DNA of 64,000 nt, taken from assembly GCA_964610745.1 (NCBI GenBank), contig CAZSYL010000002.1, positions 43,112 through 107,111 of the forward strand. The letters run 5' to 3'. Within the stretch, counting starts at the first letter, position 1. Each line of letters starts with the position of its first letter. This document shows positions 32,707-47,723 of the stretch, in pieces. Below the pieces are notes generated by a model. It searched no databases and was not told the DNA's origin. It was given only the letters and a program-made list of their open reading frames with translations. The translations under genes and the position numbers were made by a program. The DNA is from an uncultured Acidimicrobiales bacterium. GTDB lineage: Bacteria > Actinomycetota > Acidimicrobiia > Acidimicrobiales > SHLQ01.

Positions 32707-32719
32707 CCGAGCGGACAGG

Positions 32720-34183
32720 TCAGCCGCAGGCGGCGTCGACGTCGCCAACGAACTCGACCAGAAGGTCATAACCTGCCTCGGTCGTCTCCGAGAGACTGAC
32801 ACGATTGCCAGGGAAGAACGCTCGGCACCCGGGTGCCTCGTCACCGGTTGCAAGGATGGCGCCTTCGGGGATGATGCCAGCGACTGCCCTGGTCGAAGAT
32901 GAAGAGGCGCGAGCCCAGACGTCGAGGTCTGGAATCTGTTCGTTCGTTGGCAGGAAGACGACGCGGGCTGGCAAGGCTGTCGAGATGCCAACCGTCCGCG
33001 GCTCTTTCGTCGGCGGGTCGTAGATGACCGACCCAATTCGATCAACCTTGGGCAAGGTGTCGATGATTCCACCCGCTTGAACAAAGCTGCCCTTCAGCCC
33101 AATGACAGTGGCGTCCGTGCTGAAGATGTTCCAGTCAAAGCCATCGCCTTCGACATCGCCGAGCAGGAGAACAAGATCGTCGCTCGTGGTGATGTTGCTA
33201 TCGAATAGACCGTCCTCAAACCACGAGATCGTGTAGCCGGCATCGAGTAACTCCCGTTCGAGGCGAGCGGTCGCGGGGGTGTTTCCAGCGTCGGACTCCG
33301 CCGAGACCACCACGATGACATTGTCTGCTGGAGTCCCGGTGAGAAGGGTCGTGCTTCGGCTCGGCTCGCTTACATTGCCCGACGTGTCGACCGCTCGAAT
33401 GGTGTAGGTCGCAACAGTGCCCGCTGCGACATCATCTTGGAGGGTGTTGACGTTGCCGAGTACCTCGATGTCGACGGCCACCCCATCGATTTCTCGGGTG
33501 ACGAGGTAACCTGCGATACCGCTGACATCCTCGCTGAGCATCCAGGTGAGGGTCAGACCAACTTCGGTCTCGACGATCTCGGGACGGCCCGGTCGTCGCG
33601 GCGCATTTGTGTCAACCCCAACCTGGGCGGTTACAAGTTCGCTGGGTGCGCTTGCTTGGGAGCCGCGGAGCGCAACGACCCGATAGCTAAAGACGTCGCC
33701 GTCGTTGAGTCCAGTGTCCACAAACGTGGTACCGGAGACCTCGAAGCGATCTGAACCGCCACCGGCACCTGACCGCAAGACCTCGTAGCGCGAAACCCCG
33801 TCTTCGCGCGATGGATCCCAGGCAATCTCGATCGTTCCTTCGTTTGTATTGACAACGGTCAAGCCAACGGGCGGACTCGGCTCGTCCACGAACTCGGGAA
33901 GGTCCCCAATCTCGTCGCCCCCGTCCAGTTGGTCGAGTTCGCCGTCAGCGTCGTCCCCGGTGGCGTCGTCGACCTCGGTGTCCTCGTCATTCTCGTCATC
34001 ATCGCCAGTATCGGCGGGCGGGACGGTCGTAACGTCGCTCTCGGCCGGGCGAAGGGTTTCGACCGTCTGCTCGTTTGCCGAGACCCCAATACTTCCGTCT
34101 GCTTCGCTTGAACAAGCGGCCAGAATCATGCCGAGCGCGCAGAACCATAGGACCATGTGCCGCCTGAGGAACGAGCTGATCAC
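32720..34183 (-). CDS. Secreted lipoprotein with two fibronectin type III-like repeats and an unknown C-terminal domain
   Basis: 487 aa with the lipobox GMILAACSS and an acidic linker. The FN3-like repeats are PVGLTVVNTNEGTIEIAWDPS...YEV and PGRPEIVETEVGLTLTWMLS...YLV. The C-terminal ~230 aa are unassigned. Confidence 0.7.
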   Translation of the reverse strand: MISSFLRRHMVLWFCALGMILAACSSEADGSIGVSANEQTVETLRPAESDVTTVPPADTGDDDENDEDTEVDDATGDDADGELDQLDGGDEIGDLPEFVDEPSPPVGLTVVNTNEGTIEIAWDPSREDGVSRYEVLRSGAGGGSDRFEVSGTTFVDTGLNDGDVFSYRVVALRGSQASAPSELVTAQVGVDTNAPRRPGRPEIVETEVGLTLTWMLSEDVSGIAGYLVTREIDGVAVDIEVLGNVNTLQDDVAAGTVATYTIRAVDTSGNVSEPSRSTTLLTGTPADNVIVVVSAESDAGNTPATARLERELLDAGYTISWFEDGLFDSNITTSDDLVLLLGDVEGDGFDWNIFSTDATVIGLKGSFVQAGGIIDTLPKVDRIGSVIYDPPTKEPRTVGISTALPARVVFLPTNEQIPDLDVWARASSSSTRAVAGIIPEGAILATGDEAPGCRAFFPGNRVSLSETTEAGYDLLVEFVGDVDAACG

Positions 34184-34195
34184 TGCTTTAGTTTG

Positions 34196-34209
34196 ACGCG
34201 AATTCGCGT
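34196..34209. promoter_or_regulatory. Perfect 14-bp palindrome ACGCGAATTCGCGT in a divergent promoter region
   Basis: Seen directly. It lies 13 nt upstream of the lipoprotein start codon (34183) and about 220 nt upstream of the GT4 gene. An operator role is speculative. Confidence 0.3.
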
Positions 34210-34432
34210 GGTGGAGACGTCATGCACAAAACAAGTATCCGTCCTGATCAAAGTCACGGGCTAGGGCCGAATGACCCCGGAGGCACACTTCTCGACACTT
34301 GCGGCTAGGCGTTCAGAGCTGGGTAAGAATCCCCAGATTGTTTTGGAGGGTCCAGAGACCTCTACTAATTTGCGGTGCGCGGGAAACGAAGCCAATTAAT
34401 TGAGGGGACGCCCTCGCCCAGCGAGGGGTTCT

Positions 34433-35584
34433 ATGTTTGCCGAGACGATTCACGAACCGGTCGTCACCATCATGTTGAAGAACTGCCACCAATACCGGTT
34501 GCAGTTCTTCCGGGAGCTGGAACGCAACCTCTCCCAAAAGGGCATCCATCTTCGTCTCGTCATGGGTGGCGGACTCCCTGAAGACGAAGCTAAGGGCGAC
34601 CGCGCGAGTCTCTCCTGGGCGGAAACTCGTGATTTCCGGTCAATCGACCTCGCGGGCCACACACTCTTGTGGCAGTCAGGATTCGACATCGCGCGCGCAT
34701 CTGACCTGATCATCACCGAACAGGCAACGAAACAGCTCTTCAACCTCTTCCTGTCCTATGGTCAACGCCTTTTTCGGACGCGGCACGCCTTCTGGGGTCA
34801 TGGCCGCAACTTTCAGTCCTCGATCGAAGGCTCTGCGGGGGAAGGGCTCAAGCGGGCGATGACTCGTAGAGCGCACTGGTTCTTTTCCTACAACGACCTC
34901 TCCTCTCAAGCAGCAGTCGATTTCGGTATGAATCCCGAAAACGTCACTCCGGTCATGAACTCAACCGACACCGAGAGCATCCACAACGTGCGGATGTCGC
35001 TGCCTCCCGATATCGACCAGCAGGTTCGAGCCGAGCTCAAGATGGGTGACGGCCCAGTGGCGCTCTATCTCGGTGGTGTCTACGGGCACAAACGCCCCGA
35101 ATTTGTGATCGATGCCGCCGAATACCTCCGCCAGCTCATCCCAGACTTCGAGATGCTCGTGATCGGCGATGGGAGCTCGGGACATCTCATGAGTCGGGCT
35201 GCAGATCGCCACTCGTGGTTCCATCATCTCGGCTCTTGCTACGGCGATGAGAAAGTCGCTCTTAGCAGCGTCGCGTCGGTGCAGCTGATGCCCGGACTTG
35301 TCGGACTCAACATCGTCGACGCGTTCGCGATGGGCATACCAACTATCACCACCGATATCGATTATCACAGCCCTGAAATCGAATACATGGTCGATGGTGT
35401 CAACGGTCTGGTCACACCAGCGCACGCCACTCCGTTGGACTTCGCCAAGGTCACAGCCGACTTGCTCAACGACACCGAACGATTGCAGAAAATGAGCGCT
35501 GCGGCGGAGCTTGCGAGTACCGAACTCTCGACCGGAGATATGGCTCGTCGCTTCGCCGATGGCATTGTCCAAGCGCTCCTCTAA
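34433..35584 (+). CDS. Glycosyltransferase, GT4/GT1 (GT-B fold) family
   Basis: I trimmed the track ORF to the ATG at 34433 (MFAETIHEP). The C-terminal half has the typical pattern ...LVIGDGS...LMPGLVGLNIVDAFAMGIPTITTD...EIEYMVDGVNGLV. Confidence 0.8.
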   Translation: MFAETIHEPVVTIMLKNCHQYRLQFFRELERNLSQKGIHLRLVMGGGLPEDEAKGDRASLSWAETRDFRSIDLAGHTLLWQSGFDIARASDLIITEQATKQLFNLFLSYGQRLFRTRHAFWGHGRNFQSSIEGSAGEGLKRAMTRRAHWFFSYNDLSSQAAVDFGMNPENVTPVMNSTDTESIHNVRMSLPPDIDQQVRAELKMGDGPVALYLGGVYGHKRPEFVIDAAEYLRQLIPDFEMLVIGDGSSGHLMSRAADRHSWFHHLGSCYGDEKVALSSVASVQLMPGLVGLNIVDAFAMGIPTITTDIDYHSPEIEYMVDGVNGLVTPAHATPLDFAKVTADLLNDTERLQKMSAAAELASTELSTGDMARRFADGIVQALL

Positions 35585-35733
35585 CAGGTTTTTCGCACTA
35601 AATCTGATCGCTCTCCAGCCCTTTGTTCTCTTAGCCAGGGGATGATTCGCGCACACGCAGACGCAACTCTCGCGCATCCGAAATGTGCGTGTCCGTCGTA
35701 GCAACGGACATCCCTCACAACTGGAGACTCAAA

Positions 35734-36531
35734 ATGCGCAAAAGCGTTCTACTCGTACTCGCCATCCTGGCCACCGTGCTGCTACCTGCTGGCGTCGCCG
35801 GAGCCCAAGACTCAGCCCGGGTCCATCTCATCCATGGCATTCCCGACACCGACGTCGACGTCGCAGCTGGCGGCGAAGTCGTTATCCCTGACTTCTCATT
35901 CGGCGATACCCAGGATCTTTCTTCTTTCGCCGGCACAACCCTCGGCGGCGTGGAAGTCCTCCTCGCCGGCACCGACACAGTGGCCATCGATGTTGGCGAT
36001 CTCGCGATTCCAACCTCGGGCAACATCACGGCGATTGCGCACCTCGATGCTGACGGCACGCCAACCGTGAGCATCTTCGCCAACGACACCACCACGATCG
36101 CAGCCGGTAGTGGCCGTATCGTGGTTCGCCACACCGCGGCTGCACCTGCGGTCGACATCCTTGCCAACGGCTCGGCTGCCTTCACGAACGTCGCCAACGG
36201 CGCCGAAGGTTCGGCTGACCTTGCAGCTGGAACCATCTCGGCCGAGGTCGTGCCGACCGGTACGACCGAACCTGTCGTCATTGGTCCAGCCGATCTTCCA
36301 ATCGCAGAAGGTTCGTCCCTCATTGTTTACGCTGTTGGCTCGCTCGACGGCGACAGCCTCACGGTGCTCACCGAGGTCATCGACGGTCTCGGCGCTGTGC
36401 CAAACGTGGTGAACACGGGCAACAGCCCGGTCGAATCGAACAGCTTCCCACTCGTTGCTGCTATCGCACTCGCCGCAGCTGCACTTGCTGGAGTCGCTGG
36501 CACCCGCCAGCTGGCCACCAACAAGTCATAG
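35734..36531 (+). CDS. DUF4397-like secreted protein with a C-terminal cell-wall sorting-type signal (candidate sortase substrate)
   Basis: ATG at 35734 follows GGAG. The signal peptide is MRKSVLLVLAILATVLLPAGVAGAQD. VHLIHGIPDTDVDV is a DUF4397-style repeat. The C-terminus reads VVNTG, then 10 aa, then LVAAIALAAAALAGVAG, then TRQLATNKS. Confidence 0.78.
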   Translation: MRKSVLLVLAILATVLLPAGVAGAQDSARVHLIHGIPDTDVDVAAGGEVVIPDFSFGDTQDLSSFAGTTLGGVEVLLAGTDTVAIDVGDLAIPTSGNITAIAHLDADGTPTVSIFANDTTTIAAGSGRIVVRHTAAAPAVDILANGSAAFTNVANGAEGSADLAAGTISAEVVPTGTTEPVVIGPADLPIAEGSSLIVYAVGSLDGDSLTVLTEVIDGLGAVPNVVNTGNSPVESNSFPLVAAIALAAAALAGVAGTRQLATNKS

Positions 36532-36552
36532 TCCAGGCACGTTTCTCCCCCA

Positions 36553-36578
36553 GGTCCAGACCCTCCGGGGTCTGGACC
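36553..36578 (+). other. Strong hairpin between the putative substrate gene and the sortase gene
   Basis: GGTCCAGACCC-TCC-GGGGTCTGGACC forms an 11-12 bp stem. No U-tract follows. It could act as a partial terminator or an RNA-stability element. Confidence 0.5.
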
Positions 36579-36633
36579 TCGGTGTGATCACCGCTCTCGA
36601 TTCGCAACGTCTCTCCCGTCCCCCCAGCCGAAA

Positions 36634-37407
36634 GTGATCCTCAACATGTTCAACCCGGTCTCTTTGGAACGCCCTCCACTCGGTCGTCTCCGCATCCGTG
36701 TCTGTTTGGGAACGCTGGCACTCGGCCTGACCATCGCAGCATGCGGCGGTCAGGCCGATGTGATCTCCTCGACGACGGTTTCGCAAGATTCAGCCGTTGC
36801 GGCTGTCGCTGACGATGCGGGAACGGAAATCGAAGGTCTTGACGCCGATGCTTCGCCAGACGCCGCCGCTGACGAACGACCAGGATTGTCACCACTTGCG
36901 AGCCAGGTCACCGAACTCTCGTCGGCCCTTCCCGAGATCGCCCTCGCTGGCGTCGGGGACCCGATCGGTGAACAACCACGAGCGATCAACCTTCCCTCGC
37001 TCGGCGTCATTGGTGCACCGATCGAACCGGTCGGCCTCGAAGACAACGGCGAACTCGAAGTACCAGATGCCGACACGGTTGGTTGGTACGAGTTCGGTGC
37101 GGGAGTCGATGGTGGGCGCGGCTCCACCGTTCTTGCCGCACACATTGCATACAACGGCCAGAACGGCGTCTTTCAGAACCTCGTCGATCTAGAACCCGGC
37201 GAACGATTCACAATCGAACGCGATGGTGAAGATCTCGAGTACGTGGTCGAGTCGGTCATTGACTACGACAAGTGGGAGCTCCCCATCTCGGACCTCTTCA
37301 ACGAGTCCGGCGAGGAGCGCCTCATCCTCATCACCTGCGGAGGCGCATTCAACCCCGATATCGCCAGCTACGAAGACAACACCGTCGTCGTAGCACTCCC
37401 CGTCTAA
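36634..37407 (+). CDS. Class F sortase family transpeptidase
   Basis: 257 aa with an N-terminal anchor/lipobox-like LTIAACGG. The catalytic-type motifs are GSTVLAAHIAY (His) and ERLILITCGGAF (TLxTC-like Cys). The start is GTG at 36634 or ATG at 36646. Confidence 0.85.
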   Translation: MILNMFNPVSLERPPLGRLRIRVCLGTLALGLTIAACGGQADVISSTTVSQDSAVAAVADDAGTEIEGLDADASPDAAADERPGLSPLASQVTELSSALPEIALAGVGDPIGEQPRAINLPSLGVIGAPIEPVGLEDNGELEVPDADTVGWYEFGAGVDGGRGSTVLAAHIAYNGQNGVFQNLVDLEPGERFTIERDGEDLEYVVESVIDYDKWELPISDLFNESGEERLILITCGGAFNPDIASYEDNTVVVALPV

Positions 37408-37429
37408 GGGGTCGTACCCCAAAACGAAG

Positions 37430-37450
37430 AAAGGGGTCTGACCCCTTTTT
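37430..37450. terminator. Bidirectional intrinsic terminator between the convergent sortase gene and the 37492-38484 gene
   Basis: AAAGGGGT-CTG-ACCCCTTT is followed by TT on the plus strand. On the minus strand the same hairpin is followed by TTCTTCGTTTT. Confidence 0.7.
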
Positions 37451-37457
37451 GGAAAAA

Positions 37458-37486
37458 GGGGTCAGGTTGTCTGTGACATTTTTCAC
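37458..37486 (+). repeat. Degenerate copy of the GGGGTCAGGT...TTTCAC repeat
   Basis: GGGGTCAGGTtgTCtgtgACatTTTCAC compared with the 21-mer GGGGTCAGGTCTCACTTTCAC at 46738-46981. The ends are shared and there are internal insertions. Confidence 0.5.
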
Positions 37487-37491
37487 ATGGG

Positions 37492-38484
37492 CTAGCGCTT
37501 CCAGTTGATGCGGTAGGAGAGGTCGTGGCCTGCGGCTTCGGAGTAATCGTTGATCGACTTCTTTGCGAGCTTCATCGTGACCGCGGGTGGCAAGATCCCG
37601 GCAACACGACCGAACGGGGTGCGGGCCTCGTCGACCGGTCGCTGCGTCGATGTTGGAAACGAGACCTGCACCTGTGCCTGTCGTTGGCCGGCTCGGTCGA
37701 GCAGACTCGACAGCCGAGCAAACATCTGGACCAGTGGGTCGGCCCGATGGATCGACCAGTTCGCCACCGGCATGAAGTCAACGAAGTGCATCAGGTGGAA
37801 GTTGAGGTTGATCCACATGCTCTCGGCATCGATCGTAAGCGGCTCGTTGTCGATGACACGGTTGAGCTGAAGTGAATCGATCTTGTCGAGACGACCGATA
37901 TTTCGTTCGAGTTCGTCGAGAAAGAAGCCGTCATAGAAGAGGCGCAGAGTTGAGGGGAACACCTCGATCTGTTCGGCTTCGAGGTCGGTGAGCAACTCCT
38001 TGAGAGCCGGAATTTTGGCTGCATCCATCGCAAAGGTGTTCGTCGCTGTCCCCAGAATCGAGTGCAGAAGGGCGATGTTGGGCGAATACTCCTGGTAGTA
38101 GCGAGCAGCGTAGTCGTGGCAAAAGACAAGGTGTTCGAGAAAGCTGCCGTCAGCGTGCTCCATGCTGAAATCGCATTCGGTCACCATGAAGTCGATGAGC
38201 GTCTGATCGACCAAAGGTGCTGGTGCACCATGCGCGAACTCGTCGTATGCCGCGTCGAGCGCCAGTGACGCGTCCGCACTCCAGATCGCGTCCTTTGCAA
38301 GCTTCTCCTCCATGAACATCTTCGGGAGGCCGGAGAGCGCGCCGAAGATCGTCTCGGAAATATCGAAGTTCTCCATAGCCACGACTTCGACGCGTCCTGC
38401 GTGATCGATCGCGCCGCCGCCCGTTAGCGCTGCCTTGCGTTGGAGGTTCAGCGTCGCCTTCAGTTTCGAGTTGGTCGCTTCCAT
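37492..38484 (-). CDS. Hypothetical protein (330 aa), His-rich central segment, no assigned family
   Basis: I trimmed the track ORF to the ATG at 38484 (MEATNSKLK), which is preceded by GAGGAAGGG. It contains FSMEHADGSFLEHLVFCHDYAARYY...LLHSILG and FHLMHFVDF. I recognise no homology. Confidence 0.6.
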   Translation of the reverse strand: MEATNSKLKATLNLQRKAALTGGGAIDHAGRVEVVAMENFDISETIFGALSGLPKMFMEEKLAKDAIWSADASLALDAAYDEFAHGAPAPLVDQTLIDFMVTECDFSMEHADGSFLEHLVFCHDYAARYYQEYSPNIALLHSILGTATNTFAMDAAKIPALKELLTDLEAEQIEVFPSTLRLFYDGFFLDELERNIGRLDKIDSLQLNRVIDNEPLTIDAESMWINLNFHLMHFVDFMPVANWSIHRADPLVQMFARLSSLLDRAGQRQAQVQVSFPTSTQRPVDEARTPFGRVAGILPPAVTMKLAKKSINDYSEAAGHDLSYRINWKR

Positions 38485-38644
38485 CGTCTTGCCCTTCCTC
38501 GCTCGGTGGAGCACCCATCGTAGAGACGCCATCGCGCATTGGGCACATCTTGGCGGACCCTGCTCCAGCTCCAGCGGCCGAAGCTCTTAACTCGAAGGGC
38601 TCATAGGGCAACAGGTTCGAGCGGCCCGTGGCCCGTACGCCCTG

Positions 38645-40588
38645 TTAGATCACTCGCTCGTTGCCACCGTCGATTGGGATCTGAGCGCCAGTCGTCTTCG
38701 AAAGCGTGCCATCGACGAGGGCAGTGACTGCGAGAGCCACATCCTGTGATGTGATTTCGGCAGACAAGAGATTCCGTGTCTTGTACTCCTCGACCGTCAT
38801 GTCATAGCGCTTGGCCGAGTTGGCCAGCACCTCGTCGGTCCAAAGACCGGTGTCAAAGACAGCATCTGGGTGGACGGCATTGACGCGGATCCCTTCGGGG
38901 GCGAGCTCCAGCGCCAGCACGCGCATCAACTGGGTCAGTCCGGCCTTCGAGACGCTGTACGCCCCAGCCCCGGCACCGGGGGCGGTCACATTCCTCGATG
39001 CGACGAACACAATCGCCGGGTCGACGCCGTGACGTAAATATGGGATCGCCGCACGGGCGAGCATCTGATGCGATGTGAGATTTACCTGCATCGAGGCAGA
39101 CCAGGACGCATCATCGAGGTCTTCGACACGCTGACCGGTCTGAAAGATGCCGACGGTCGACACGATGATGTCAAGGCCGCCGTAGTCGTGGACGACCTGG
39201 GCGAGCGAGCGCTCCACCATCTCAGCATCGGTGGCATCGACAATCCGTCCGGCGATTGAATCGTCCGTCAATTGGGTCACCGAATTCGAGATGTCGGCAG
39301 CGATGACGACCGCACCTTGCAACGCGAGTTCTTCGGCACATGCTCGACCGATCCCGGAAGCCGCACCGGTGACGTAGGCGATCTTGCCGGTCAGCACTTT
39401 CGGCGCAGGTTGACGACGAAGCTTCGCCTGCTCCAGTTCCCAGTATTCGAGTTCGCGAAGTTGTTCTTCGGTCAAGCCTTCCCAACCTCCGACTTCAACC
39501 GCTGGACCCATGGCCCGCATCGTGGTCGCTGCAACATCGGCCGAAACTCGAGCACGCTTGGCGTTCGGGCCGAACGAGCGCACCGACCCGTCCTCGAACA
39601 TTCCCCAGTGCGGGTGAGGGCTGAGCCTGGTGAGATTCGGATCGTTCGCCCGATCGACGTATGCGTTGTATCGATCTCTGAAGTCAGCCACCGAAGCTTC
39701 GAGGTCGTCGCCGAAGATGGCGGGGAATGGCTTGTTGTGAATGACGTGCTCGGGCGTGAGCACACCGCGGCTCACCATGTCGCCAACCGCCTCCACCGAC
39801 TCTGGGTCGATGTTGGTAGCCGGAAGCGAGATCTGCGCCCGCCCGGCTACTTCGCAGACGCACCGACGCGCCGTCGCGACCATGAGGGCATCGGAAGGTT
39901 CGATCGGTCGGAGAATCGAAGGCCCGAAGTTCTCGGAGAGATGTTGCTCGGCCTTGTCGACGAGGGCGATCGTCATCTCATAGCTCTCACGAGCATCGTC
40001 GGCAAAGGTGAATAGACCGTGATGCGAGGAGACGACACCATCGATATCGCCAAGCTGATCGATCACCGACGCGAACTGTTTGGCCAGGACGAAGCCCGGC
40101 ATGACATAGGGAAGCACGAGGACACGATCACCAAAGATGTCCGCCAGGCGCTCTTGGCCGTCTGGCAGATTCGAGACCGTGACGATCGAGTCAGCGTGTG
40201 TGTGATCAACAAACGTGTATGGAATGAGCCCGTGCACGATCGCTTCGATCGAGGGGTTGTTGGCGGTTGGAACGAACCGGGCTCGTAAGAGTTCGGCGAC
40301 CATGTCGGGGTCGCTGAGCGTGTCTAGATCAGCCAGTCGCGTCACGAGATCGCGCTTCATCCCGGTGAACCCTTCGACCCCCATCGTGGCGAGGTCGAAA
40401 CCGCTGGCCTTTACAAAGACACCATCGTGATCTTCGCCGAACCGGTCGGCCGAGATTGCCTTGACCGACGTGTTTCCCCCACCGTGGAGCACGAGCGCGC
40501 TGTCGCTGCCGATGAGGCGCGAGCTGTAGGCGCGCACGTCGAGGGGATCACCGGTAGGGGCATCGCTACCGTTCCATCTACTCTTCAC
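38645..40588 (-). CDS. Bifunctional class II aldolase/adducin-domain plus short-chain dehydrogenase protein (RhaEW-type rhamnulose-1-phosphate aldolase/lactaldehyde dehydrogenase family)
   Basis: 647 aa. The N-terminal half is aldolase-II-like (VLHGGGNTSVK...VDHTHAD). The C-terminal SDR has KIAYVTGAASGIGRA and YSVSKAG. The GTG start overlaps the upstream stop (GTGA). Confidence 0.85.
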   Translation of the reverse strand: MKSRWNGSDAPTGDPLDVRAYSSRLIGSDSALVLHGGGNTSVKAISADRFGEDHDGVFVKASGFDLATMGVEGFTGMKRDLVTRLADLDTLSDPDMVAELLRARFVPTANNPSIEAIVHGLIPYTFVDHTHADSIVTVSNLPDGQERLADIFGDRVLVLPYVMPGFVLAKQFASVIDQLGDIDGVVSSHHGLFTFADDARESYEMTIALVDKAEQHLSENFGPSILRPIEPSDALMVATARRCVCEVAGRAQISLPATNIDPESVEAVGDMVSRGVLTPEHVIHNKPFPAIFGDDLEASVADFRDRYNAYVDRANDPNLTRLSPHPHWGMFEDGSVRSFGPNAKRARVSADVAATTMRAMGPAVEVGGWEGLTEEQLRELEYWELEQAKLRRQPAPKVLTGKIAYVTGAASGIGRACAEELALQGAVVIAADISNSVTQLTDDSIAGRIVDATDAEMVERSLAQVVHDYGGLDIIVSTVGIFQTGQRVEDLDDASWSASMQVNLTSHQMLARAAIPYLRHGVDPAIVFVASRNVTAPGAGAGAYSVSKAGLTQLMRVLALELAPEGIRVNAVHPDAVFDTGLWTDEVLANSAKRYDMTVEEYKTRNLLSAEITSQDVALAVTALVDGTLSKTTGAQIPIDGGNERVI

Positions 40589-41811
40589 TTGGTGGAGGCT
40601 CCCATCAGCGAAACAAGTTGATCGACAGCGGCGTCGACAAAGACATCGTCTTCTGCCCCGGCGTCGATCTCGATGTAGCTGACCGAGTCTGGGAGAGCCG
40701 CCTGCAGAGCGTCGAGCAAAGCACGATCGGCATCCGCGTCGACGAGAGCGCCACCTGACGCTGAATAACTGCTGAGACCATTGGTTGGAGCCATCACGAC
40801 CGTGTTCTCACCAGCGTTTGCGAGACGCTGGCCGATCACCGAAGCGACGCCAGCCAGTTCCTCGGCGCTTGTGCGCGGAACGAGTATCACGGGGTTATGG
40901 AACGTGTAGGTACGGTTCGCGTACCTGTCGGGGACTTCGTTAGGTCCGTCGAGCATGATGCCGATGTGGTCGGTCCCGCCGGGCACGACCACCTGTGGCA
41001 GACCAAGCTCGGCCGCAACGGTGAGTCGGTCTTCATCAGAAGCGCGCAACCCGCCAAGTTCGGCGTCGCTCAGATCGCCAAGTGCGTAGTCGAAGACCGC
41101 ATCGATGACGCCTTCGCGCATCAGCTGCTCCATGGCACGACCGCCCGAGCCGACTGCATGAAAGACGATCGACTCGTAGCCTGCGGCGTCGAGGCGTTCC
41201 ATTGCGCGCATGGTCCCGGACGTGAGTACACCGAGGTTGGTGATGGCCACGACCGGGCGGGTGCGTTCGGTCAGACCCGTCCGAGGGACAGCTCCCATAC
41301 CAACAGCCGCTGCTGCTGCATTCGAGAGCACCTGACGCAGCAGTGGATTGACACCCAGAATGTCGCTCACCGAGAACATCATCGTGATGTCCTTGATCCC
41401 GACGTACGGCGAGGTGTCGCCCGAGGCCATGGTCGACACCATGATCTTTGGAAACCCATACGGGAGCGCCTGCATCACCTGAGACCCGTTGTTGGTTCCC
41501 TGGGTTCCACCCAGGCCTATGATTGCGTCGATCTTGCCGTCAGCGACGAGCTGGGTGGTGATCGCTATGGCACCAGCCACCATGACGGCCGATGCCACTT
41601 CGCGCGATGGGTTGACTCGAAGGTCGGCCAGGGATGTCCCACCGCGTTCGGCAACGGCACTGTTGGTGACGTCGACGTCTTGATCGGTGCCTCCCACGAC
41701 CCCGATGTCGATGATGTGAGGTGTACCGCCCGCGGTTTCGATGGCATCGACGAGGCACTTGACCTCCGCTGCCTTGGTATCCATCGTGGCCAGAATTGCA
41801 ACTGTCGTCAT
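40585..41811 (-). CDS. UPF0261 / Tm-1-like ATP-binding domain protein
   Basis: 408 aa. MTTVAILATMDTKAAEVKCLVDAIETAGGTPHIIDIGV is the typical N-terminus of this family. It is paired with the PEP-hydrolase-like gene, as is usual. Confidence 0.8.
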   Translation of the reverse strand: MTTVAILATMDTKAAEVKCLVDAIETAGGTPHIIDIGVVGGTDQDVDVTNSAVAERGGTSLADLRVNPSREVASAVMVAGAIAITTQLVADGKIDAIIGLGGTQGTNNGSQVMQALPYGFPKIMVSTMASGDTSPYVGIKDITMMFSVSDILGVNPLLRQVLSNAAAAAVGMGAVPRTGLTERTRPVVAITNLGVLTSGTMRAMERLDAAGYESIVFHAVGSGGRAMEQLMREGVIDAVFDYALGDLSDAELGGLRASDEDRLTVAAELGLPQVVVPGGTDHIGIMLDGPNEVPDRYANRTYTFHNPVILVPRTSAEELAGVASVIGQRLANAGENTVVMAPTNGLSSYSASGGALVDADADRALLDALQAALPDSVSYIEIDAGAEDDVFVDAAVDQLVSLMGASTK

Positions 41812-41858
41812 TCGTTCCCCCTGCTGATCATGTGTGCTTATTCGTTGGCGCGACGCGC

Positions 41859-42725
41859 CTAGGACTTGTCGGTGTATCGCAGACTCGCAAAGCCTTCGGC
41901 GGCCTCGGTCACGGCCTTCTCAATGGGAAGACGCTCGGTGGATGAGCCCGTCCAGAACCCGTCGGCCGAGGTGCAATCGAGCATGTACTGCGCGTCTTCC
42001 ACGGTCTCCATGGCCGCTCCATGACAAACCAAAAGCGTGTCGGGTGCGACCTCGCGCAACTTCACGAGCACTTCCTCGGTGTTGGCCGCGGTGGTTTCCA
42101 GGTCAATGCCGTTGTCGTATCCGGATAGGCCGCCCTTGGTCGTGCCGGCGTGAAAGCAGAAGACGTGCGGCTGTGCTTCCTCGCAGATCCGCAGGGCGTC
42201 CTCTTCGGTGAACGCAAGCCCGATCGACACCATGTTCATCTCGTCCTTGGCGAGCTTGAGCATCTCGATCTCGTTGTCGAGCGTGATACCCGCGCTGGTC
42301 AACACCTTGTAGATCTCCGAATCGTGATCGACGTAACTAATCGACGGGCCAATATTGGACACCGACTGAACACCCATTGCCTTAAGGTCGGCGAGCACCA
42401 TGCGCATGTCGCGCAACGGATCGTTCGCGTTGATGCATGCGCACACGAACGCGTCTCCGTTGAGCGCGGGCATGATGTCTTCGCGTGTGTAGTCGAGGGT
42501 CTGCTTGTTCGAGTCCAGGATCGGCCACATCATCGCCATCGTGCCCATGCCATTAGACCGCAGCCGCGCACCCGAGAAGGTGTTGATGCAGTCCGTGCCA
42601 GCCTTCTCCAGCAGTTTGGCCACCAGTCCCGATCCGGCGCTTGAGATCATGATGGGCAGCCCCGCCTCTTTCTTCTTCGCGAGGCGTTCGAGGATCTGTT
42701 CGGTGGTCACACGTTTCGTGATCAT
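41859..42725 (-). CDS. Phosphoenolpyruvate hydrolase-like TIM-barrel family protein (Tm-1 C-terminal domain homologue)
   Basis: 288 aa. LERLAKKKEAGLPIMISSAGSGLVAKLLEKAGTDCINTFSGARLR matches my recollection of this family. Confidence 0.75.
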   Translation of the reverse strand: MITKRVTTEQILERLAKKKEAGLPIMISSAGSGLVAKLLEKAGTDCINTFSGARLRSNGMGTMAMMWPILDSNKQTLDYTREDIMPALNGDAFVCACINANDPLRDMRMVLADLKAMGVQSVSNIGPSISYVDHDSEIYKVLTSAGITLDNEIEMLKLAKDEMNMVSIGLAFTEEDALRICEEAQPHVFCFHAGTTKGGLSGYDNGIDLETTAANTEEVLVKLREVAPDTLLVCHGAAMETVEDAQYMLDCTSADGFWTGSSTERLPIEKAVTEAAEGFASLRYTDKS

Positions 42726-43594
42726 GGTCGGTCTCCTGTTGGTTCTTCTTCGTTGGCAACGACCGACGCAATGAACGAGTTGATCGCATCGGTGACAAAG
42801 TCCTGGTGGGCGTGCGGCTCGATGTAACGAGCGGGGGCGAGCAGCGAGGTTGCGTTGGGTAGTGCCACGGCGGTTTCGTCCGCTATCTCAGTCGGGTGCA
42901 AGGGATCGCGCTCGGTGGCGACGACGAGCGCCGGTTGAGTTACGGCTGCGAGGTCGGCAAGGTCGTCGATTGGATGGGAGTCGACCATGGCACCGAGAAC
43001 ATCGGGTCGACCGGTCTCCTCAACGCCGTCGATGGTCCGAGCAATGCTCGCTGCGGCAAGTGGAACCGTCGCCTCGATCTCCTGAAAGCGGCCGTCCGAT
43101 TCGAGGATGCCGCGAGCGGAGGAGACCCCGTCGCGATCGATCCAGGCGCCCATGGCGGCGATGATGTCGAGGTGTGGACGTCCAGGTTGGTCGGTCCAGG
43201 CTGGGCGAACGAGCACAAGTCCGGATACGCGTTGAGGAAAGTCCAGCGCGATTCGTAGCGCAATGCCCGAACCCATGGAGATACCACCGAAGATGGCTCG
43301 CTCAACATCGAGCTCATCGAGCAGGTCGACCATCGCATCGGCGAACGAACCGAAGCTGAGCGGTACCGCCGACCGGGCCGACTCGCCATGTGCTGGCGCG
43401 TCGATCACGATTCGCCGAACGCCCGAAACGCCCACAATCGCTGCCTGTGCCTGGGAACGAGATCCGCCAAGTCCGTGCAAGAACACGAGCGGGTATCCAA
43501 CGCCATCGTCGGAGAACGCGAGCCCGCTCGAGCCACGTTTCTCATTCGCTCGCTCCGGCCGTCCCACCCTTTGCACTGTACGGAGTAACCACAA
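42722..43594 (-). CDS. Alpha/beta hydrolase fold protein
   Basis: 290 aa, containing LVFLHGLGGS and the nucleophile elbow GISMGSG. The start is TTG at 43594; two GTG codons a few codons downstream are alternatives. It overlaps the next gene by 4 nt (ATGA). Confidence 0.75.
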   Translation of the reverse strand: MWLLRTVQRVGRPERANEKRGSSGLAFSDDGVGYPLVFLHGLGGSRSQAQAAIVGVSGVRRIVIDAPAHGESARSAVPLSFGSFADAMVDLLDELDVERAIFGGISMGSGIALRIALDFPQRVSGLVLVRPAWTDQPGRPHLDIIAAMGAWIDRDGVSSARGILESDGRFQEIEATVPLAAASIARTIDGVEETGRPDVLGAMVDSHPIDDLADLAAVTQPALVVATERDPLHPTEIADETAVALPNATSLLAPARYIEPHAHQDFVTDAINSFIASVVANEEEPTGDRP

Positions 43595-43650
43595 CGCTGT
43601 CAGGAAGCATTGGAGCTAGCGCCAAAGAACTAGTCACCAGGGATTTGTCT

Positions 43651-43686
43651 CGGGGTGCCTGGTCGTTTCGACGACGCAGGCACCCC
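43651..43686 (-). terminator. Long GC-rich hairpin after the 5'-nucleotidase gene (terminator candidate lacking a U-tract)
   Basis: CGGGGTGCCTGGTCGT-TTCG-ACGACGCAGGCACCCCG forms a stem of about 16 bp with one bulge. It sits 18 nt downstream of the stop at 43704. The U-run lies on the 5' side only. Confidence 0.5.
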
Positions 43687-43703
43687 GAAAAACAACGTGC
43701 TAC

Positions 43704-45998
43704 TTACTCGGCGAGAGGGACGATGCTCTGCGTCGAGAAGTTCTCAGGAGCCGACAAGACACCTTCGACATCTTGTTCGATGTAGTCGATGAAGATCTGC
43801 GCGTACTCGAGGAGCGTGTCCTCTAGACGACCGTCTTCAGCGACTGCTTCGAAGGTGAAGTAGCCATCGCCACCGCCAGCGGTGAAGCTGTTCGTCGCCA
43901 CCGTGAAGGTGGCAGCGGGATCGAGCGCAACGAACTCGCCGTCGATGAGCACCTCGATGTTGGAGAGGCGCTCACCGTCGGCTGCATTCAAATCGACGTC
44001 CCAGCGGATGCCCGCACCATACGGGTACGCACCGGTCGATCCATCGGGATCGATCGAGAAGGCGACCGCCTCTTCGAGAACCGCTGCAACTTCCTCGCCG
44101 GTCATCTCAAGGTTGACGATCGTGTTCGCGAACGGCAACAGCTCGAAGACGTCGGCGATCGTGATATCACCCTCAGGAATGTCGATACGAATGCCACCGG
44201 AGTTCTGGATAGCTATGTCAGCTTCGAACGAGCGTGCCAGGAAGGCATCGGTAACGAGCTGCTGGATGTCGCCACCGTTGACAGCTGTATCGGCAACGTC
44301 GCAGATCTGGCTGCGACCCTGACCGGGAATGCGCTCGAGGCAAAGATCCTCAGTCGCCTCACCAATCACCTGCTGTTGAAGCACTTCGACCTGTCCGGAG
44401 AACTGATCGAGCACCGCAGCTGCGTCGGCGTCAGGGGTGACGATCGAGAGCTCAGGCGTTGCTTCGACAAAGGCAATGACCTCGTCGCGAGCCTCACCGG
44501 TGAGTTCCTCACGATCGGCATCCTCTGATGGCTCACGCTGAAATGAGTCTGCGAGCAGAAGATGTGGTGTTCCTTCGCAGCTACTCACAACCCCGTCCTC
44601 GTCGAAGCTGACGTTGAGTTCACCGACAACCCAGCTGAACTGCCAGGCCTGAACAACACATACCGGGTTTCCATCAGCGTCGGTTACCCGCTGTGGGTAC
44701 TCACCGCTGGTGTTGAGTCCGAGATCCCCGAAGTTGCCGAGGAGCGAGTGGCTGTCGCCGCCGACGATGACGTCGACGCCGCTGACCTGCGATGCAAGGT
44801 CGAGGTCGTTCGCAAGCTGAATATGCGTGACGAGCACGATCTTGTTGATGCCCGCAGCACTGAGTAGATCGATCTGCGCCTGAGCGGTCTCGATCTCGTC
44901 GAGGAACTCTGTCGTGTCGAGTGGGCTCGAAGAGTTCTGCGTCTTGCCCGCAATGTTGATGCCGACATAGCCGACTCGCTCGCCGCCTTCGTATTCGATG
45001 ATGACGTTGTCGTCAAAGATCTTGTCGCCATTAGGAGCGAGCGGTGTGCCCGGTGCGGGAATGACGTTTGCGCCAAGCGTCGAGGTCTGACAGCTGTCGG
45101 ACCCATTGAGGTGACCAAGGAAATCGGCCAGACCCTGGTCGGAGCTATCAAACTCGTGGTTGCCGAGAGCAAACACATCGAAGCAGGCTTCATTCATGAG
45201 CGCCGCGTCGGCTTCTCCACCGAAGAGGCTGAAGAAGAGCGTGCCGGTAATCGCATCGCCAGCGTGAACCTTGACGACCTCACCGCTTGCGTTGGCTGCC
45301 AGCTCGTCGATCTTCGATACAACGCTTGGGAAGCCTCCGAACTGCACGCGGGTTTCGCCGCCTGGAAGTTCGAGATCACCCGAGTCGCTTTCGAGATGAC
45401 TGTGGTGGTCGTTGATGTGAAGGATCGTCAGATCGAACGGAGCGCCAGCAGGAGCACCGTCGTCTCCTCCTCCATCGCCGGGTTCGTCGACCGGTGGTGG
45501 TGGATCACCAACCGGAGCCCTCGCTCCGTCGGTGACGCTGTCCTCGCCCGGTCCGGGCCACAACGTGTTATCACCGCCGCCACCCTCAAGCTCATCGTTA
45601 CCGGCTTCGCCGAGCACGATGTCGTCGCCCTGGGCGCCGCGGAGCACATCGTCGCCGTTCCCACCGAAGAGGGTGTCGTTGCCCGCTCCGCCTTGGACGA
45701 TGTCGTTGTCGTTTCCGCCTTCAATGCGGTCGTCGCCCGGACCGCCAATGAGGATGTCGTCACCGGAATGTCCGCATATCGTGTCATTGCCCGCTCCGCC
45801 GTTGATGGCATCGGGACCGAGCGATCCAAAGATGACGTCGTCGCCATCAGTACCTACCGTGAGGATGCCGGACTCCTCGACGAGGATCGTCACCTCTTGA
45901 CCTCCACACGTCAGTGCGCCCTCGGCCGACACATTTGGTGCAGTGGCAACCAGTGCGCCCACCAGAGCGAGCGCTAGGCCCGCAGCTTTCAGTCTCAT
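43704..45998 (-). CDS. Secreted bifunctional metallophosphatase / 5'-nucleotidase with N-terminal RTX-type calcium-binding repeats
   Basis: 764 aa with the signal peptide MRLKAAGLALALVGALVATAPNVSAEG. About nine GGxGxD nonapeptide repeats occupy aa ~48-150. These are followed by ILHINDHHSHLE, GNHEFD and a 5'-nucleotidase C-terminal domain. Confidence 0.88.
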   Translation of the reverse strand: MRLKAAGLALALVGALVATAPNVSAEGALTCGGQEVTILVEESGILTVGTDGDDVIFGSLGPDAINGGAGNDTICGHSGDDILIGGPGDDRIEGGNDNDIVQGGAGNDTLFGGNGDDVLRGAQGDDIVLGEAGNDELEGGGGDNTLWPGPGEDSVTDGARAPVGDPPPPVDEPGDGGGDDGAPAGAPFDLTILHINDHHSHLESDSGDLELPGGETRVQFGGFPSVVSKIDELAANASGEVVKVHAGDAITGTLFFSLFGGEADAALMNEACFDVFALGNHEFDSSDQGLADFLGHLNGSDSCQTSTLGANVIPAPGTPLAPNGDKIFDDNVIIEYEGGERVGYVGINIAGKTQNSSSPLDTTEFLDEIETAQAQIDLLSAAGINKIVLVTHIQLANDLDLASQVSGVDVIVGGDSHSLLGNFGDLGLNTSGEYPQRVTDADGNPVCVVQAWQFSWVVGELNVSFDEDGVVSSCEGTPHLLLADSFQREPSEDADREELTGEARDEVIAFVEATPELSIVTPDADAAAVLDQFSGQVEVLQQQVIGEATEDLCLERIPGQGRSQICDVADTAVNGGDIQQLVTDAFLARSFEADIAIQNSGGIRIDIPEGDITIADVFELLPFANTIVNLEMTGEEVAAVLEEAVAFSIDPDGSTGAYPYGAGIRWDVDLNAADGERLSNIEVLIDGEFVALDPAATFTVATNSFTAGGGDGYFTFEAVAEDGRLEDTLLEYAQIFIDYIEQDVEGVLSAPENFSTQSIVPLAE

Positions 45999-46265
45999 TT
46001 TCTCCCCGTTTCATTCCAAAGGTTGGTTCTAATCGCATCCTTGTGTGAATGAGACTCTCTGTCCAGCGACTTTGGTTAAAAGACGACGAACTGTGGGAAA
46101 AATGTCGATTCATCTTCATCACGCCCCCCTTTGTCCCCAACGCTGGGAGAAGAGTTGGACTCACAGCACTAAGTGTTACTGGGCAACGATGCGCATCGCC
46201 ATGCCGTACCAACTCCGCGCCCTATGCCTCTCAGCTCGAGACAGCCCGGCCATACTGAGAATGCC

Positions 46266-46700
46266 ATGACGATGACGAACGAACGCCTCGATGCCATGAT
46301 TCGCGAGCATGCCGACGCCATACATCACAGCGACCTCGGTCGCTGGCAGTTCGACTACTACGGGCACAGCGTCATCGTGCTCACCGACGAGGTGCACAAC
46401 CGGATGCGGGTCATGACCCCGGTCGGTGAAGCCGCGGCGATGGACGAAGAACTGGCGATGGAATGTTTGCGTGCGAACTTCGACCGGGCTCTCGATGCCC
46501 GCTACGCAATCTCTGGCGACTACGTATGGAGCGCATTCATCCACCCACTCAGCGAGCTCAACGTGTCACAGGTCGTCGACGCGTTCAACCAGGTTGTCAG
46601 TCTCGCCGCCACCTACGGCACGAGCTTCACGAGCGGCAGCCTCGCCTTTGGACGCGCCGAGCAAGACACTAGCGACGAAGACGACCAGACCGACGGGTAA
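46266..46700 (+). CDS. Small acidic cytosolic protein, possibly of the secretion-chaperone-like (CesT/YbjN) superfamily
   Basis: I trimmed the track ORF to the ATG at 46266 (MTMTNERLDAMI). The pattern HNRMRVMTPV...LRANFDRALDARYAISGDYVWSAFIHPL resembles T3SS-chaperone-like families, from memory. Confidence in the function is low. Confidence 0.5.
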   Translation: MTMTNERLDAMIREHADAIHHSDLGRWQFDYYGHSVIVLTDEVHNRMRVMTPVGEAAAMDEELAMECLRANFDRALDARYAISGDYVWSAFIHPLSELNVSQVVDAFNQVVSLAATYGTSFTSGSLAFGRAEQDTSDEDDQTDG

Positions 46701-46737
46701 GACCAGTAGCCCGCAACCAAGCTCGCTGTGGCGAAAT

Positions 46738-46981
46738 GGGGTCAGGTCTCACTTTCACCCATAGTCCCTACGGGGTCAGGTCTCACTTTCACTTGCTGCG
46801 ACGTTGATCAGCCGAAACTCAACGGTTTGGGTGTGCAGCCTCGGACTTCATCACCTTGGCAGCCCGACTGTCGACAGCGGTTAACGAGCGACGACCGTTG
46901 TGAATTCAACAGCCTGAGGGCAAGTGCGTGAAAGTGAGACCTGACCCCAATCAATATGCAGTGAAAGTGAGACCTGACCCC
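46738..46981. repeat. Array of four copies of a 21-nt repeat, two direct and two inverted
   Basis: GGGGTCAGGTCTCACTTTCAC occurs at 46738-46758 and 46772-46792. The exact reverse complement GTGAAAGTGAGACCTGACCCC occurs at 46928-46948 and 46961-46981. The two inverted copies share a further AATCA. The array fills the convergent intergenic gap between 46700 and 47023. Confidence 0.9.
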
Positions 46982-47022
46982 AATCAGGATGGAGTGGGGT
47001 CCTCCTGATCTGGGAGAGAACA

Positions 47023-47421
47023 TCACGGGCCGTTGATGTCCTCTCGTCGCATGGCGATATCGGCCTCTAGCGTTCGCCCTCCAATTCCAATGATCGGCAC
47101 GCCATCGACTTCGGCGGTCACGGTCACCGTGACGAACTCGGTGCCCACGCTCGTCGACACGATTGCCTCGCCGACCGAACGTCTCGCTGCCGCGGTCGCT
47201 ACAGCCGATGCCGCTTCCGGCTCGACAGCCGCGGCCCTCGCACCTTCCCGCGCCGCGTTCTCAAGCCGAACCTGCATGGTCATCAACTGACCAACCCACA
47301 CAATGCCCGCAACACACAACACGAGCAGCGGGAGGATCAGCGCCATTTCCAGAGTGGCCTGACCTCGATCGTCTCCAAGGTCTCGCCGAGCTCGGCCCTG
47401 ACCCTCGCCGCTGCGCCACAT
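47023..47421 (-). CDS. TadE-like pilus/pseudopilin protein (helicase/secretion-neighbourhood type)
   Basis: These are the last 132 codons of the 258-aa track ORF. DDRGQATLEMALILPLLVLCVAGIVWVG is a TadE-type N-terminus. The start is proposed at the ATG at 47421, abutting the flp-like stop. Confidence 0.7.
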   Translation of the reverse strand: MWRSGEGQGRARRDLGDDRGQATLEMALILPLLVLCVAGIVWVGQLMTMQVRLENAAREGARAAAVEPEAASAVATAAARRSVGEAIVSTSVGTEFVTVTVTAEVDGVPIIGIGGRTLEADIAMRREDINGP

Positions 47422-47627
47422 CAGACGCGACCGATGATCGAGTCGATCACGGCATCGAAAAGCTCGGCTATCTTCCCTGTTCCTGAAGCCCAAGTCACCA
47501 CAATTAGAGCAATTGTGGCGACGCCGAGAAGGAGCAGAGCGTACTCGGCGGTGGATTGCCCCCGGTCGTCGACGAGCCGACTGCGAAGGGCGTGACCCAG
47601 GCGAAGAGCGATGGTTGTTTGCAACAT
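47421..47627 (-). CDS. Flp-like pilin, DUF4244 type (Rv3656c-like)
   Basis: 68 aa. The leader is followed by DDRGQSTAEYALLLLGVATIALIVV, a G/xxxxEY-type processing motif with a hydrophobic stretch. Confidence 0.75.
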   Translation of the reverse strand: MLQTTIALRLGHALRSRLVDDRGQSTAEYALLLLGVATIALIVVTWASGTGKIAELFDAVIDSIIGRV

Positions 47628-47723
47628 GATCGTTGCTCACTTTCAGTAGTTCATTGATTGGGCCTGCAGTCGCTGAATGCGCTGGGCCGAGACTTGCGAG
47701 CAACAGCTCGCACGATTGGATTT

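Follow-up and report, generated by a model that had tools for sequence, protein, structure and literature searches.

The window analysed here, a stretch of 64,000 nucleotides (nt) from an uncultured Acidimicrobiales bacterium (assembly GCA_964610745.1, contig CAZSYL010000002.1, positions 43,112 to 107,111), contains a DEAH-type helicase gene and a convergent Tad/Flp operon that normally lie side by side in this class, but are separated here by 14.3 kb and 11 genes. A preliminary description, made from the window alone, had read this interval as accessory cargo integrated at a hotspot. We consider it probable that the interval is a composite, gene-dense variable region, which was built and eroded stepwise at the boundaries of transcription units, and not one island. 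Most of its modules would already have been present in this slot in the ancestor of the sub-clade to which the window belongs, the window would have kept the most complete version, and deletions would have removed different modules from its relatives, with illegitimate or homologous recombination now and then replacing a module or adding one. Changes of this kind would be tolerated because the four affected sites sit between independent transcription units, and no site-specific integration machinery would be involved. The 21-nt repeats found beside tadE would be a passenger, resident there since before the window and one of its relatives, L027, diverged.

Separation of the helicase gene and the Tad operon

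The left anchor of the interval, the helicase gene (30367-32706, + strand), codes for a protein with the Pfam domains DEAD, Helicase_C and WHD_HRQ1 and a C-terminal MZB/DUF1998 region. The right anchor is a six-gene Tad/Flp operon on the - strand (47023-50741), which encodes a CpaE/Ssd-like protein (49962-50741, from gene calls on contigs of the same population), TadA (48835-49968, Pfam T2SSE), TadB (48239-48838) and TadC (47724-48242, both Pfam T2SSF), a 68-amino-acid (aa) Flp/DUF4244 protein (47421-47627, from gene calls) and a TadE of 132 aa (47023-47421, Pfam TadE). The helicase gene is convergent to the operon and all six expected types of operon gene are present; the coordinates and identities given for both partners in the preliminary description are borne out by the listing of open reading frames (ORFs), Pfam and NCBIfam. 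A TadE is also found where a 258-aa TadE-like ORF had been proposed, but this ORF is not a single gene and resolves into the genes for Flp and TadE.

The distance between the two anchors was set against other members of the class with a helicase-alignment scan of GTDB species representatives, which gave 80 Acidimicrobiia loci with homologs 56-91% identical to the window helicase, and the window proteins were mapped on these loci by tblastn. The helicase gene has a tadA gene downstream in 60 of the 80 loci, in the same convergent arrangement as in the window, and of the loci in which the sequence continues for about 8 kb or more past the helicase only four are without it. From the helicase stop codon to the 3' end of tadA the window measures 16,129 nt, and the other Acidimicrobiia have a median of 2.8 kb and a range of 2.0-8.8 kb (n=60), making the window distance the largest of 61 genomes. 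The expectation that the two partners are normally adjacent in this lineage, and that they are split in the window by 14.3 kb of other genes, is therefore upheld on both counts, and the split of the pair is real and extreme for the class. The same holds for the next junction, where the gap between the CpaE-like gene and the HAD gene is 4,178 nt in the window and has a median of 206 nt and a maximum of 677 nt in 43 other loci, as anticipated for two genes that are normally neighbors. The order found class-wide is topA, nhaA, anti-sigma factor, STAS protein, helicase (+), Tad operon (-) and HAD (+), and this is shown to be the ancestral order in Acidimicrobiia. For the larger helicase-to-Tad gaps of L040, L057, L067 and L077 (L numbers denote the individual loci and contigs compared), Pfam gave no match for ten long ORFs taken from them, and these ORFs are probably spurious owing to the high-GC DNA.

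Within the population of the window, an identical helicase protein is encoded on 19 metagenome contigs, with the same gene order in 10 of 10 places among the matches listed, and an identical TadA on four contigs, with the same arrangement in 3 of 3 places among the matches listed. Since all listed contigs with an identical helicase or TadA share the arrangement, it is fixed in this population.

Modules of the interval in related species

The gene that directly follows the helicase encodes an FN3-domain lipoprotein (32720-34183, -; Pfam fn3, lipobox LAAC). It is found at this position in L011-L018, L027, L037, L094-L096, L178 and L179, and in every relative with a helicase identity of at least 71% and enough sequence downstream. 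Across these relatives the protein is 45-65% identical to that of the window at the aa level, as against 71-91% for the helicase. Judged by this distribution and divergence, the FN3 lipoprotein is a clade-core, fast-evolving protein and not accessory cargo. Throughout the family-level clade of the window its gene has its place between the helicase gene and tadE and is transcribed co-directionally with the Tad operon.

The slot between the FN3 gene and tadE differs from species to species. In a neighbor-joining (NJ) tree of the helicase, which as a single-gene tree with weak internal support and with bootstrap values that are unreliable owing to rooting conveys only a coarse topology, the window forms a sub-clade with L011, L027, L094, L095 and L012, with L096 just outside; L013, L014, L015 and L037 form the sister group, and L016, L017 and L018 are more distant. 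The eight lineages closest to the window have eight different contents in the slot. L011 (helicase 91% identical) has a GT61 glycosyltransferase gene and a 144-aa ORF, L094 (90%) an RTX-nucleotidase gene and a 131-aa ORF, and L027 (89%) the genes for a DUF4397 protein and sortase F followed by the repeat array. L095/L172 (88%) contains GT4, DUF4397, sortase F and a counterpart of the window gene at 37492-38532, then four other genes, and L173/L178 (88%) an ABM-domain gene and a 555-aa gene. The slot of L012 (86%), which has no Tad genes within 10 kb, holds LacI, HisD-like, SDR, 6PGD and Lhr genes, and that of L096/L097 (82%) DUF4397, sortase F, redoxin, a 151-aa gene, DUF1905 and pyrophosphatase, then a catabolic operon. 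In L014 and L037 (79-80%) the slot is empty, and in L015, L018 and L179 (71-82%) it is occupied by an HD-GYP-like gene. The hotspot proposed in the preliminary description is therefore retained as a site of gene turnover, but not as the site of one 14.3-kb integrated cargo unit, as the FN3 gene is core and the modules are shared piecemeal.

For each window module, one to three related species have a counterpart in the slot, with order and orientation conserved. The GT4 glycosyltransferase gene (34400-35584, +; Pfam Glycos_transf_1) is common to the window and L095 (78% aa and 74% nt identity) and absent from L027 and L094; at its position L011 has the GT61 gene. It is followed by the gene for a secreted DUF4397 protein (35683-36531, +; Pfam DUF4397), which has a signal peptide, a C-terminal hydrophobic segment and a charged tail and is likely a sortase substrate, and by that for a class F sortase (36634-37407, +; Pfam Sortase), whose best match, NF033748 class_F_sortase, scores 104.6 bits and thus under the cutoff of 166. 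The DUF4397 protein is 92% identical to its counterpart in L027, 86% to that in L095 and 83% to that in L096, and the respective values for the sortase are 89%, 79% and 81% at the aa level. The next gene (37492-38532, -; called as 330 aa in an ORF of 346 aa) has no Pfam, NCBIfam or PADLOC match and is shared with L095/L172 at 73% aa identity. At the nt level, the segment from GT4 through this gene is 73-74% identical between the window and L095, and DUF4397 plus sortase F are 81-83% identical between the window and L027.

The right half of the interval begins with a four-gene catabolic operon (38645-43594, -; Pfam, NF006196/NF002674) for a bifunctional class II aldolase/SDR, a UPF0261 protein, a PEP_hydrolase-like protein and an alpha/beta hydrolase. 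It occurs in the same slot and orientation in L096/L097, with 62-91% aa identity and 75% nt identity over 4.6 kb (L096), where the helicase is 82% identical. A secreted protein with RTX repeats and a NadN-like 5'-nucleotidase (43704-45998, -; Pfam HemolysinCabind, Metallophos and 5_nucleotid_C, signal peptide; 433.1 bits against TIGR01530, cutoff 436) is found in the slot of L094 at 89% aa and 75-80% nt identity. The last gene, a 144-aa ORF from the gene calls (46266-46700, +), is common to L011 (81% aa, 78% nt); it has no Pfam, NCBIfam or PDB sequence match, and its single-sequence AlphaFold model has a pLDDT of 44.7. The inventory of these genes in the preliminary description agrees with Pfam and NCBIfam, apart from the label chaperone-like for the 144-aa ORF, which could not be verified. 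PADLOC, applied to the cargo genes without a family, detected no defense system, its sole match being a weak one to a methyltransferase.

Overall, the shared modules are 72-83% identical at the nt level, and the flanking core genes have values of 74-77% (helicase), 66-72% (Tad) and 80-82% (HAD). The ranking of relatives by DUF4397 and sortase F identity, with L027 above L095 and L096, tracks their ranking by helicase identity. Because the shared modules show core-like divergence and the same order, we favor vertical descent from a module-bearing ancestor followed by differential deletion. Gains and replacements are also seen, namely the exchange of GT4 for GT61 and unrelated cargo in L012, L095 and L173. 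Deletion is demonstrably active in this neighborhood, because the nhaA gene, flanked by topA and the gene for the anti-sigma factor in the window and in most relatives, is cut to its last 66 codons next to topA in L011 (3258-3455) and is missing from L094 and L095. When leftover fragments of cargo modules were sought in the slots of the relatives, none was found, and the nhaA remnant of L011 is the only such fragment. The view that the block is ancestral, which had been named as what would speak against an insertion, accordingly holds in part: much of the block is probably ancestral in the sub-clade and the relatives differ largely by loss, but the whole 14 kb is not universal.

Recent integration of the 14.3 kb as one genomic island into a helicase/Tad hotspot, by a mechanism left unspecified, would account for the largest helicase-to-Tad distance of 61 genomes, for the functionally mixed cargo (surface, catabolic and secreted proteins) and for the presence of a repeat element at one end. 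Its hallmarks are absent, however. No integrase, recombinase or transposase domain was found by Pfam in the genes of the block, no direct repeats flank it, and there is no tRNA gene at or near it, the only one in the window being tRNA-Pro at 19261, 13 kb away; the preliminary description had likewise seen neither integrase nor tRNA. As most intergenic gaps in the block are smaller than 220 nt, they leave no space for the remains of an integrase gene; the largest gap, 322 nt, holds the repeat element. Deviant composition, which had been suggested as a sign of insertion, is not found either: the GC content is flat at about 0.60 (0.57-0.63) across the block, like that of the flanks, and the tetranucleotide distance in a 3-kb sliding profile relative to the window has z values of -1.3 to +0.3, so both GC and tetranucleotide usage are native. 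Nor do close relatives have or lack the block as one unit, and none of the features by which integrative islands are recognized (integrase, tRNA attachment site and direct repeats, deviant composition, presence or absence as a single unit) is seen. Instead, six modules are each common to different related species with core-like divergence and in the same order, the FN3 gene is core to the clade, and L027 has the repeat element at this site but lacks the cargo. In view of this mosaic sharing, arrival as a single island is largely refuted and we regard it as very improbable.

Free-living aquatic bacteria that are otherwise syntenic are known to carry flexible genomic islets and islands, of additive and replacement types. 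The interval resembles such islets in that it occupies a fixed site between core genes, differs in content among related species, is enriched in envelope and secreted functions, has neither integrase nor tRNA, and is native in composition. In contrast to them, it varies between species and not within a population, and its modules look vertically inherited and then differentially lost, not recently exchanged. The left part could in principle be a replacement-type flexible island for cell-surface variation, swapped via homologous recombination in the flanks and kept diverse by selection through phages or grazers. This would fit the low identity of FN3 (45-65%) where the helicase is 71-91% identical, the alternative glycosyltransferases GT4 (window, L095) and GT61 (L011) at one position, the mostly envelope or secreted nature of the left-side cargo and the fast evolution of the Tad pilus proteins too (TadE 48-69%). 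We nevertheless consider it unlikely, as the similarity of the shared modules does not exceed that of the flanks and their identity ranking agrees with the helicase tree, which argues against recent exchange; the catabolic operon and the CoA-transferase and HDAC-like genes further to the right have no surface functions; and the listed contigs of the population (10 places for the helicase, 3 for TadA) contain no variants.

Stepwise construction and erosion of a composite region thus remains the preferred reading, although several points weigh against it. Ancestral presence of the modules rests on parsimony over the single-gene helicase tree with its weak internal support, the relatives are metagenome-assembled contigs that are often truncated, and about half of the window modules is the most that any relative has. 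The same pattern would result if homologous recombination had carried modules from one related species to another in the distant past. The unrelated cargo in L012, in part of L095 and in L173 means that gains do occur, and the CoA-transferase and HDAC-like genes are without counterpart at the site in any relative sampled. The catabolic operon is also found outside the slot, in L099 and L100, where it lies next to ppa and a two-component system. Close homologs of its aldolase-SDR fusion (38645-40588) occur only in relatives, at 81-86% identity and then in a tier at 65%, beyond which the nearest named homologs, at 55-60%, belong to marine Alphaproteobacteria such as Labrenzia, Celeribacter, Oceanicola, Ruegeria and Shimia. 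On both grounds, at least this module must at some time have come into the lineage by transfer or translocation. The homologs suggest an old transfer between phyla, and the operon may have a deeper history of such transfers, but it is no recent arrival. Taken as a whole, the pattern is ordinary genome flux in a poorly sampled lineage.

Some further arrangements were noted at the FN3 gene. In the sister group (L014, L037, L015 and L179) it is co-directional with the Tad operon and located directly after tadE or after the HD-GYP-like gene, and L179 has a GGDEF gene immediately upstream of its helicase gene. The FN3 and HD-GYP genes may functionally extend the Tad operon, perhaps under the control of cyclic di-GMP. 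The junction between the helicase and FN3 genes holds a LysR regulator gene in L013 (12723-13643) and L179 (12805-13725), and in L096 (9811-12642) a gene for a 943-aa AAA_11/AAA_12 (Upf1-like) helicase.

The repeat element beside tadE

The gap between the 144-aa ORF and tadE contains a non-autonomous TIRYT-type terminal-repeat element (46738-46981, not assigned to a strand), which consists of four exact copies of GGGGTCAGGTCTCACTTTCAC, with none expected, arranged as two direct copies (at 46738 and 46772) and two inverted copies (at 46928 and 46961) around a 135-nt core. The 21-nt repeats described earlier as an array abutting the TadE-like gene are therefore present, but they are not a tandem array, and Tandem Repeats Finder (TRF) reported none at this place. 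For both strands of the element, folding gives a long two-part hairpin (z = -6.8 and -10.2). Rfam yielded no RNA family for positions 30000-56000 at E<=1, neither at the element nor elsewhere in that range, and simple promoter and terminator scans around it found nothing.

L027, a different species, has the same array of two direct and two inverted copies (11028-11318), with the same 34-nt spacing and in the same place between the stop codons of the sortase and tadE genes, and it does so without the 9.6 kb that lie between sortase F and the array in the window. Because the array is present at this site in L027 in the absence of the cargo, it is not a scar of block insertion, and the earlier interpretation of the array as the junction at which the block ends is not sustained. 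All eight copies of the window and L027 share an identical 14-nt core, GGGGTCAGGTCTCA, and the surrounding DNA is about 77% identical; the 7-nt tails of the repeats have changed in concert between the species, the tail in L027 being TYCATAA. The array is absent from L011, L094 and L095. Only one array is present in the 64-kb window; a search for the repeat at other variable loci had been proposed, and there is none at the other module boundaries.

In wider searches, the exact 21-mer gave no match in JGI metagenomes and the two-copy core pattern none in viral contigs. Two GGGGTCAGGTCTCA cores spaced 15-25 nt apart were, by contrast, found in 70 JGI metagenome contigs (L102-L171), which range in GC content from 0.34 to 0.73, and it was this relaxed pattern alone that brought the family to light. 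The tails of these repeats are lineage-specific, and the copies either form short hairpin elements of the 2+2 type or bracket TIRYT Y1-transposase genes of about 1 kb. Homologs of such a transposase, 290-330 aa long and starting with MARPLRIEFPG..YHVTSRGN, are encoded on 23 of the 70 contigs, and inverted arrays bracket the gene in the dozen or so contigs examined. The bracketed proteins combine Y1_Tnp with Bac_DnaA_C or HTH_23, and scores against NF047646 REP_Tyr_transpos are 90.3 bits for L153 (cutoff 80) and 78.6 and 69 for two others. As no homolog of this transposase is encoded in the 64 kb of the window, the window element is non-autonomous and MITE/REPIN-like.

The terminal inverted repeats of TIRYT/'TIRtron' elements share the consensus GGGGWSAS and occur as dimers or clusters (Di Nocera et al. 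2013, PMC3733652), and the corresponding transposases are TnpA_REP-like Y1 HUH proteins of subclass 2.1 (Quentin et al. 2018, PMC6006769). All four copies in the window begin with GGGGTCAG, which fits GGGGWSAS, they occur in dimers and clusters, and the same 14-nt core brackets, in inverted orientation, Y1_Tnp genes of 290-330 aa in contigs of other organisms. Going by these sequence features, the repeat is of the TIRYT (Y1 HUH transposase) family of terminal inverted repeats, a known transposable family. It differs from the published elements in that the window copy has no transposase gene, only a single array is present in 64 kb, the invariant core comprises 14 nt as opposed to an 8-nt consensus, and the array is kept at the same locus in two species with its tails altered in concert. 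REP/REPIN-RAYT systems (PMC3116915, PMC3337134) are similar in that they comprise short extragenic repeats, inverted doublets and long hairpins, are tied to a single-copy IS200-like Y1 transposase and can be conserved in position among related genomes. However, GGGGTCAGGTCTCACTTTCAC has no GTAG head and is not self-complementary, so that hairpins form only between inverted copies, and the sequence at hand shows no high copy number. An identity as a GTAG-type REP/REPIN was therefore rejected, there being no GTAG and the unit not being palindromic.

The position of the array exactly at the boundary between cargo and tadE, the transposase genes bracketed by related arrays elsewhere and a hint at other genomic copies (a contig ending inside the outer repeat, see below) could be taken to mean that TIRYT-type repeats drove the rearrangements of the interval, either as recombination substrates or as transposase-mobilized ends that carried cargo. 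There is very little chance that they did. A single array in 64 kb, with none at other module boundaries, and a window without transposase gene argue against this, as do the occurrence of the array without cargo in L027, its absence from L011, L094 and L095, whose slots still vary, and the fact that no transport of 10-kb cargo is known for this type of Y1 HUH element (PMC3733652, PMC6006769). In our preferred scheme of a stepwise-built region, the element would have no part in the gene turnover.

A different role is conceivable for the array itself, which might be a domesticated, locus-specific element that acts as a bidirectional transcription insulator, an RNA-stabilizing hairpin or a binding platform for a DnaA-like HTH domain. 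Its apparent retention by more than one species at the 3' end of the Tad operon would agree with domestication, as would the invariant 14-nt core, the concerted tails and the exact core in contigs with a GC content of 0.34-0.73; even so, we regard domestication as doubtful. In a weaker variant, the slot from FN3 to tadE would be an exchange site for surface cassettes under diversifying selection.

Two observations concern the structure of the element. Its central segments in the window (46793-46927) and L027 (11084-11263) do not align except for the motifs CTGTTGAATTCAC and TCAACGGTTT (13 nt and 10 nt), which are located at opposite ends in the two species, one of them reverse-complemented; the orientations are inconsistent and the motifs short. 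This hints at a rearrangement or inversion of the central segment, and contigs of the same population show a single orientation of the element. The Logan contig L093 (6096-6149), from the same population, ends inside the outermost repeat copy, which reflects either further copies of the repeat elsewhere in the genome or a hairpin that breaks the assembly.

Further variable sites and the helicase/secretion neighborhood

To the right of the Tad operon, a CoA-transferase III gene (-) and an HDAC-like deacetylase gene (+; 50961-53301, Pfam) are followed by the gene for a membrane or secreted DUF2330 protein (53453-54826, +; Pfam DUF2330), which is located upstream of that for a HAD-IB hydrolase (54919-55728, +; TIGR01490, 186.9 bits with a cutoff of 98.3). 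The pair of CoA-transferase and HDAC-like genes is so far confined to the window among the relatives sampled, being absent between CpaE and HAD in L011, L027, L037, L015, L018, L172, L173 and L179, and the CpaE and HAD genes abut in L011, L027, L037, L015, L018 and L179. DUF2330 is, on the other hand, also found between CpaE and HAD in L172 and L173/L174 (69% aa, 75-77% nt). The second interruption between the Ssd-like and HAD-IB genes, which had been placed at 50961-54826, is thus confirmed as such, but not in its entirety as accessory cargo, since DUF2330 is common to two relatives at this site. A third variable slot (55749-57340, -) holds the genes for an S-adenosylmethionine (SAM)-dependent methyltransferase (55749-56735, Pfam Methyltransf_23) and a 124-aa ORF (56966-57340), of which the methyltransferase is common to L173 only (56% aa), and is followed by a GSDH-like gene (57405-58919, -; Pfam GSDH); in L037, L015 and L179 no gene separates HAD from the GSDH-like gene. 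All four variable points lie between independent transcription units, which are divergent at FN3/DUF4397 and cpaE/HAD and convergent at sortase/tadE and HAD/GSDH.

Repeats of other kinds were noted at two places in the window. Three repeats of 24-27 nt near the 5' end of the GSDH-like gene (58479-58579) probably encode a low-complexity linker, and the N-terminal region of the GSDH-like protein weakly resembles the N-terminal linker of the FN3 lipoproteins of L011 and L027. Five repeats with an 18-nt period (25268-25382) are located at the 3' end of topA (25233-27965, -), where they encode a Lys/Ala-rich C-terminal tail.

The Flp/Tad operon of Mycobacterium tuberculosis, Rv3654c-Rv3660c, is part of an actinobacterial helicase/secretion neighborhood (PMC2864267, PMC9531140). 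The window locus is similar to this neighborhood (TIGR03815-TIGR03819) in that a DEAH helicase with MZB/DUF1998 is convergent to genes for CpaE/Ssd-like, TadA, TadB, TadC, Flp and TadE proteins, a HAD-IB gene adjoins the Ssd-like gene in most relatives, and the best NCBIfam matches of the window proteins are the same families. The corresponding helicase of M. tuberculosis is, as we assume, Rv3649, and a HAD gene presumably lies directly beside ssd in that organism as well. TIGR03817 is by far the best NCBIfam match of the window helicase, over its full length, with 865.7 bits and a curated cutoff of 874.1. Among the families dedicated to the operon, only NF041390 TadE_Rv3655c reaches its cutoff (43.2 bits for TadE, cutoff 40); the ATPase scores 284.7 bits against TIGR03819 (cutoff 373.15), TIGR03816 (TadE-like) gives 27.3 with a cutoff of 50.95, and an NCBIfam scan of the window proteins yielded no match to TIGR03815 (CpaE-like) at E<=1e-3. 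In contrast to the described neighborhood, the window proteins thus score under the curated cutoffs for TIGR03817, TIGR03819 and TIGR03816, TIGR03815 is undetected, there is a single TadE gene, and the partners are 14.3 kb apart. The TIGR03815-03819 models were probably built from another actinobacterial class.

The finding matters little beyond annotation. It extends the helicase/secretion neighborhood to the Acidimicrobiia and indicates that the linkage within it is loose; because the independent transcription units can sit 16 kb apart, we argue that tight physical coupling of the helicase gene and the Tad operon is not needed. It also provides a clean case of a large apparent 'insertion' that, on comparison with a sufficient number of related species, turns out to be an old islet eroded differently from lineage to lineage. 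Of more use may be the side result, a TIRYT repeat with a 14-nt core that is invariant across very different GC contents and that is located at the same site in two species, and it could aid the study of the little-characterized Y1 transposase systems.

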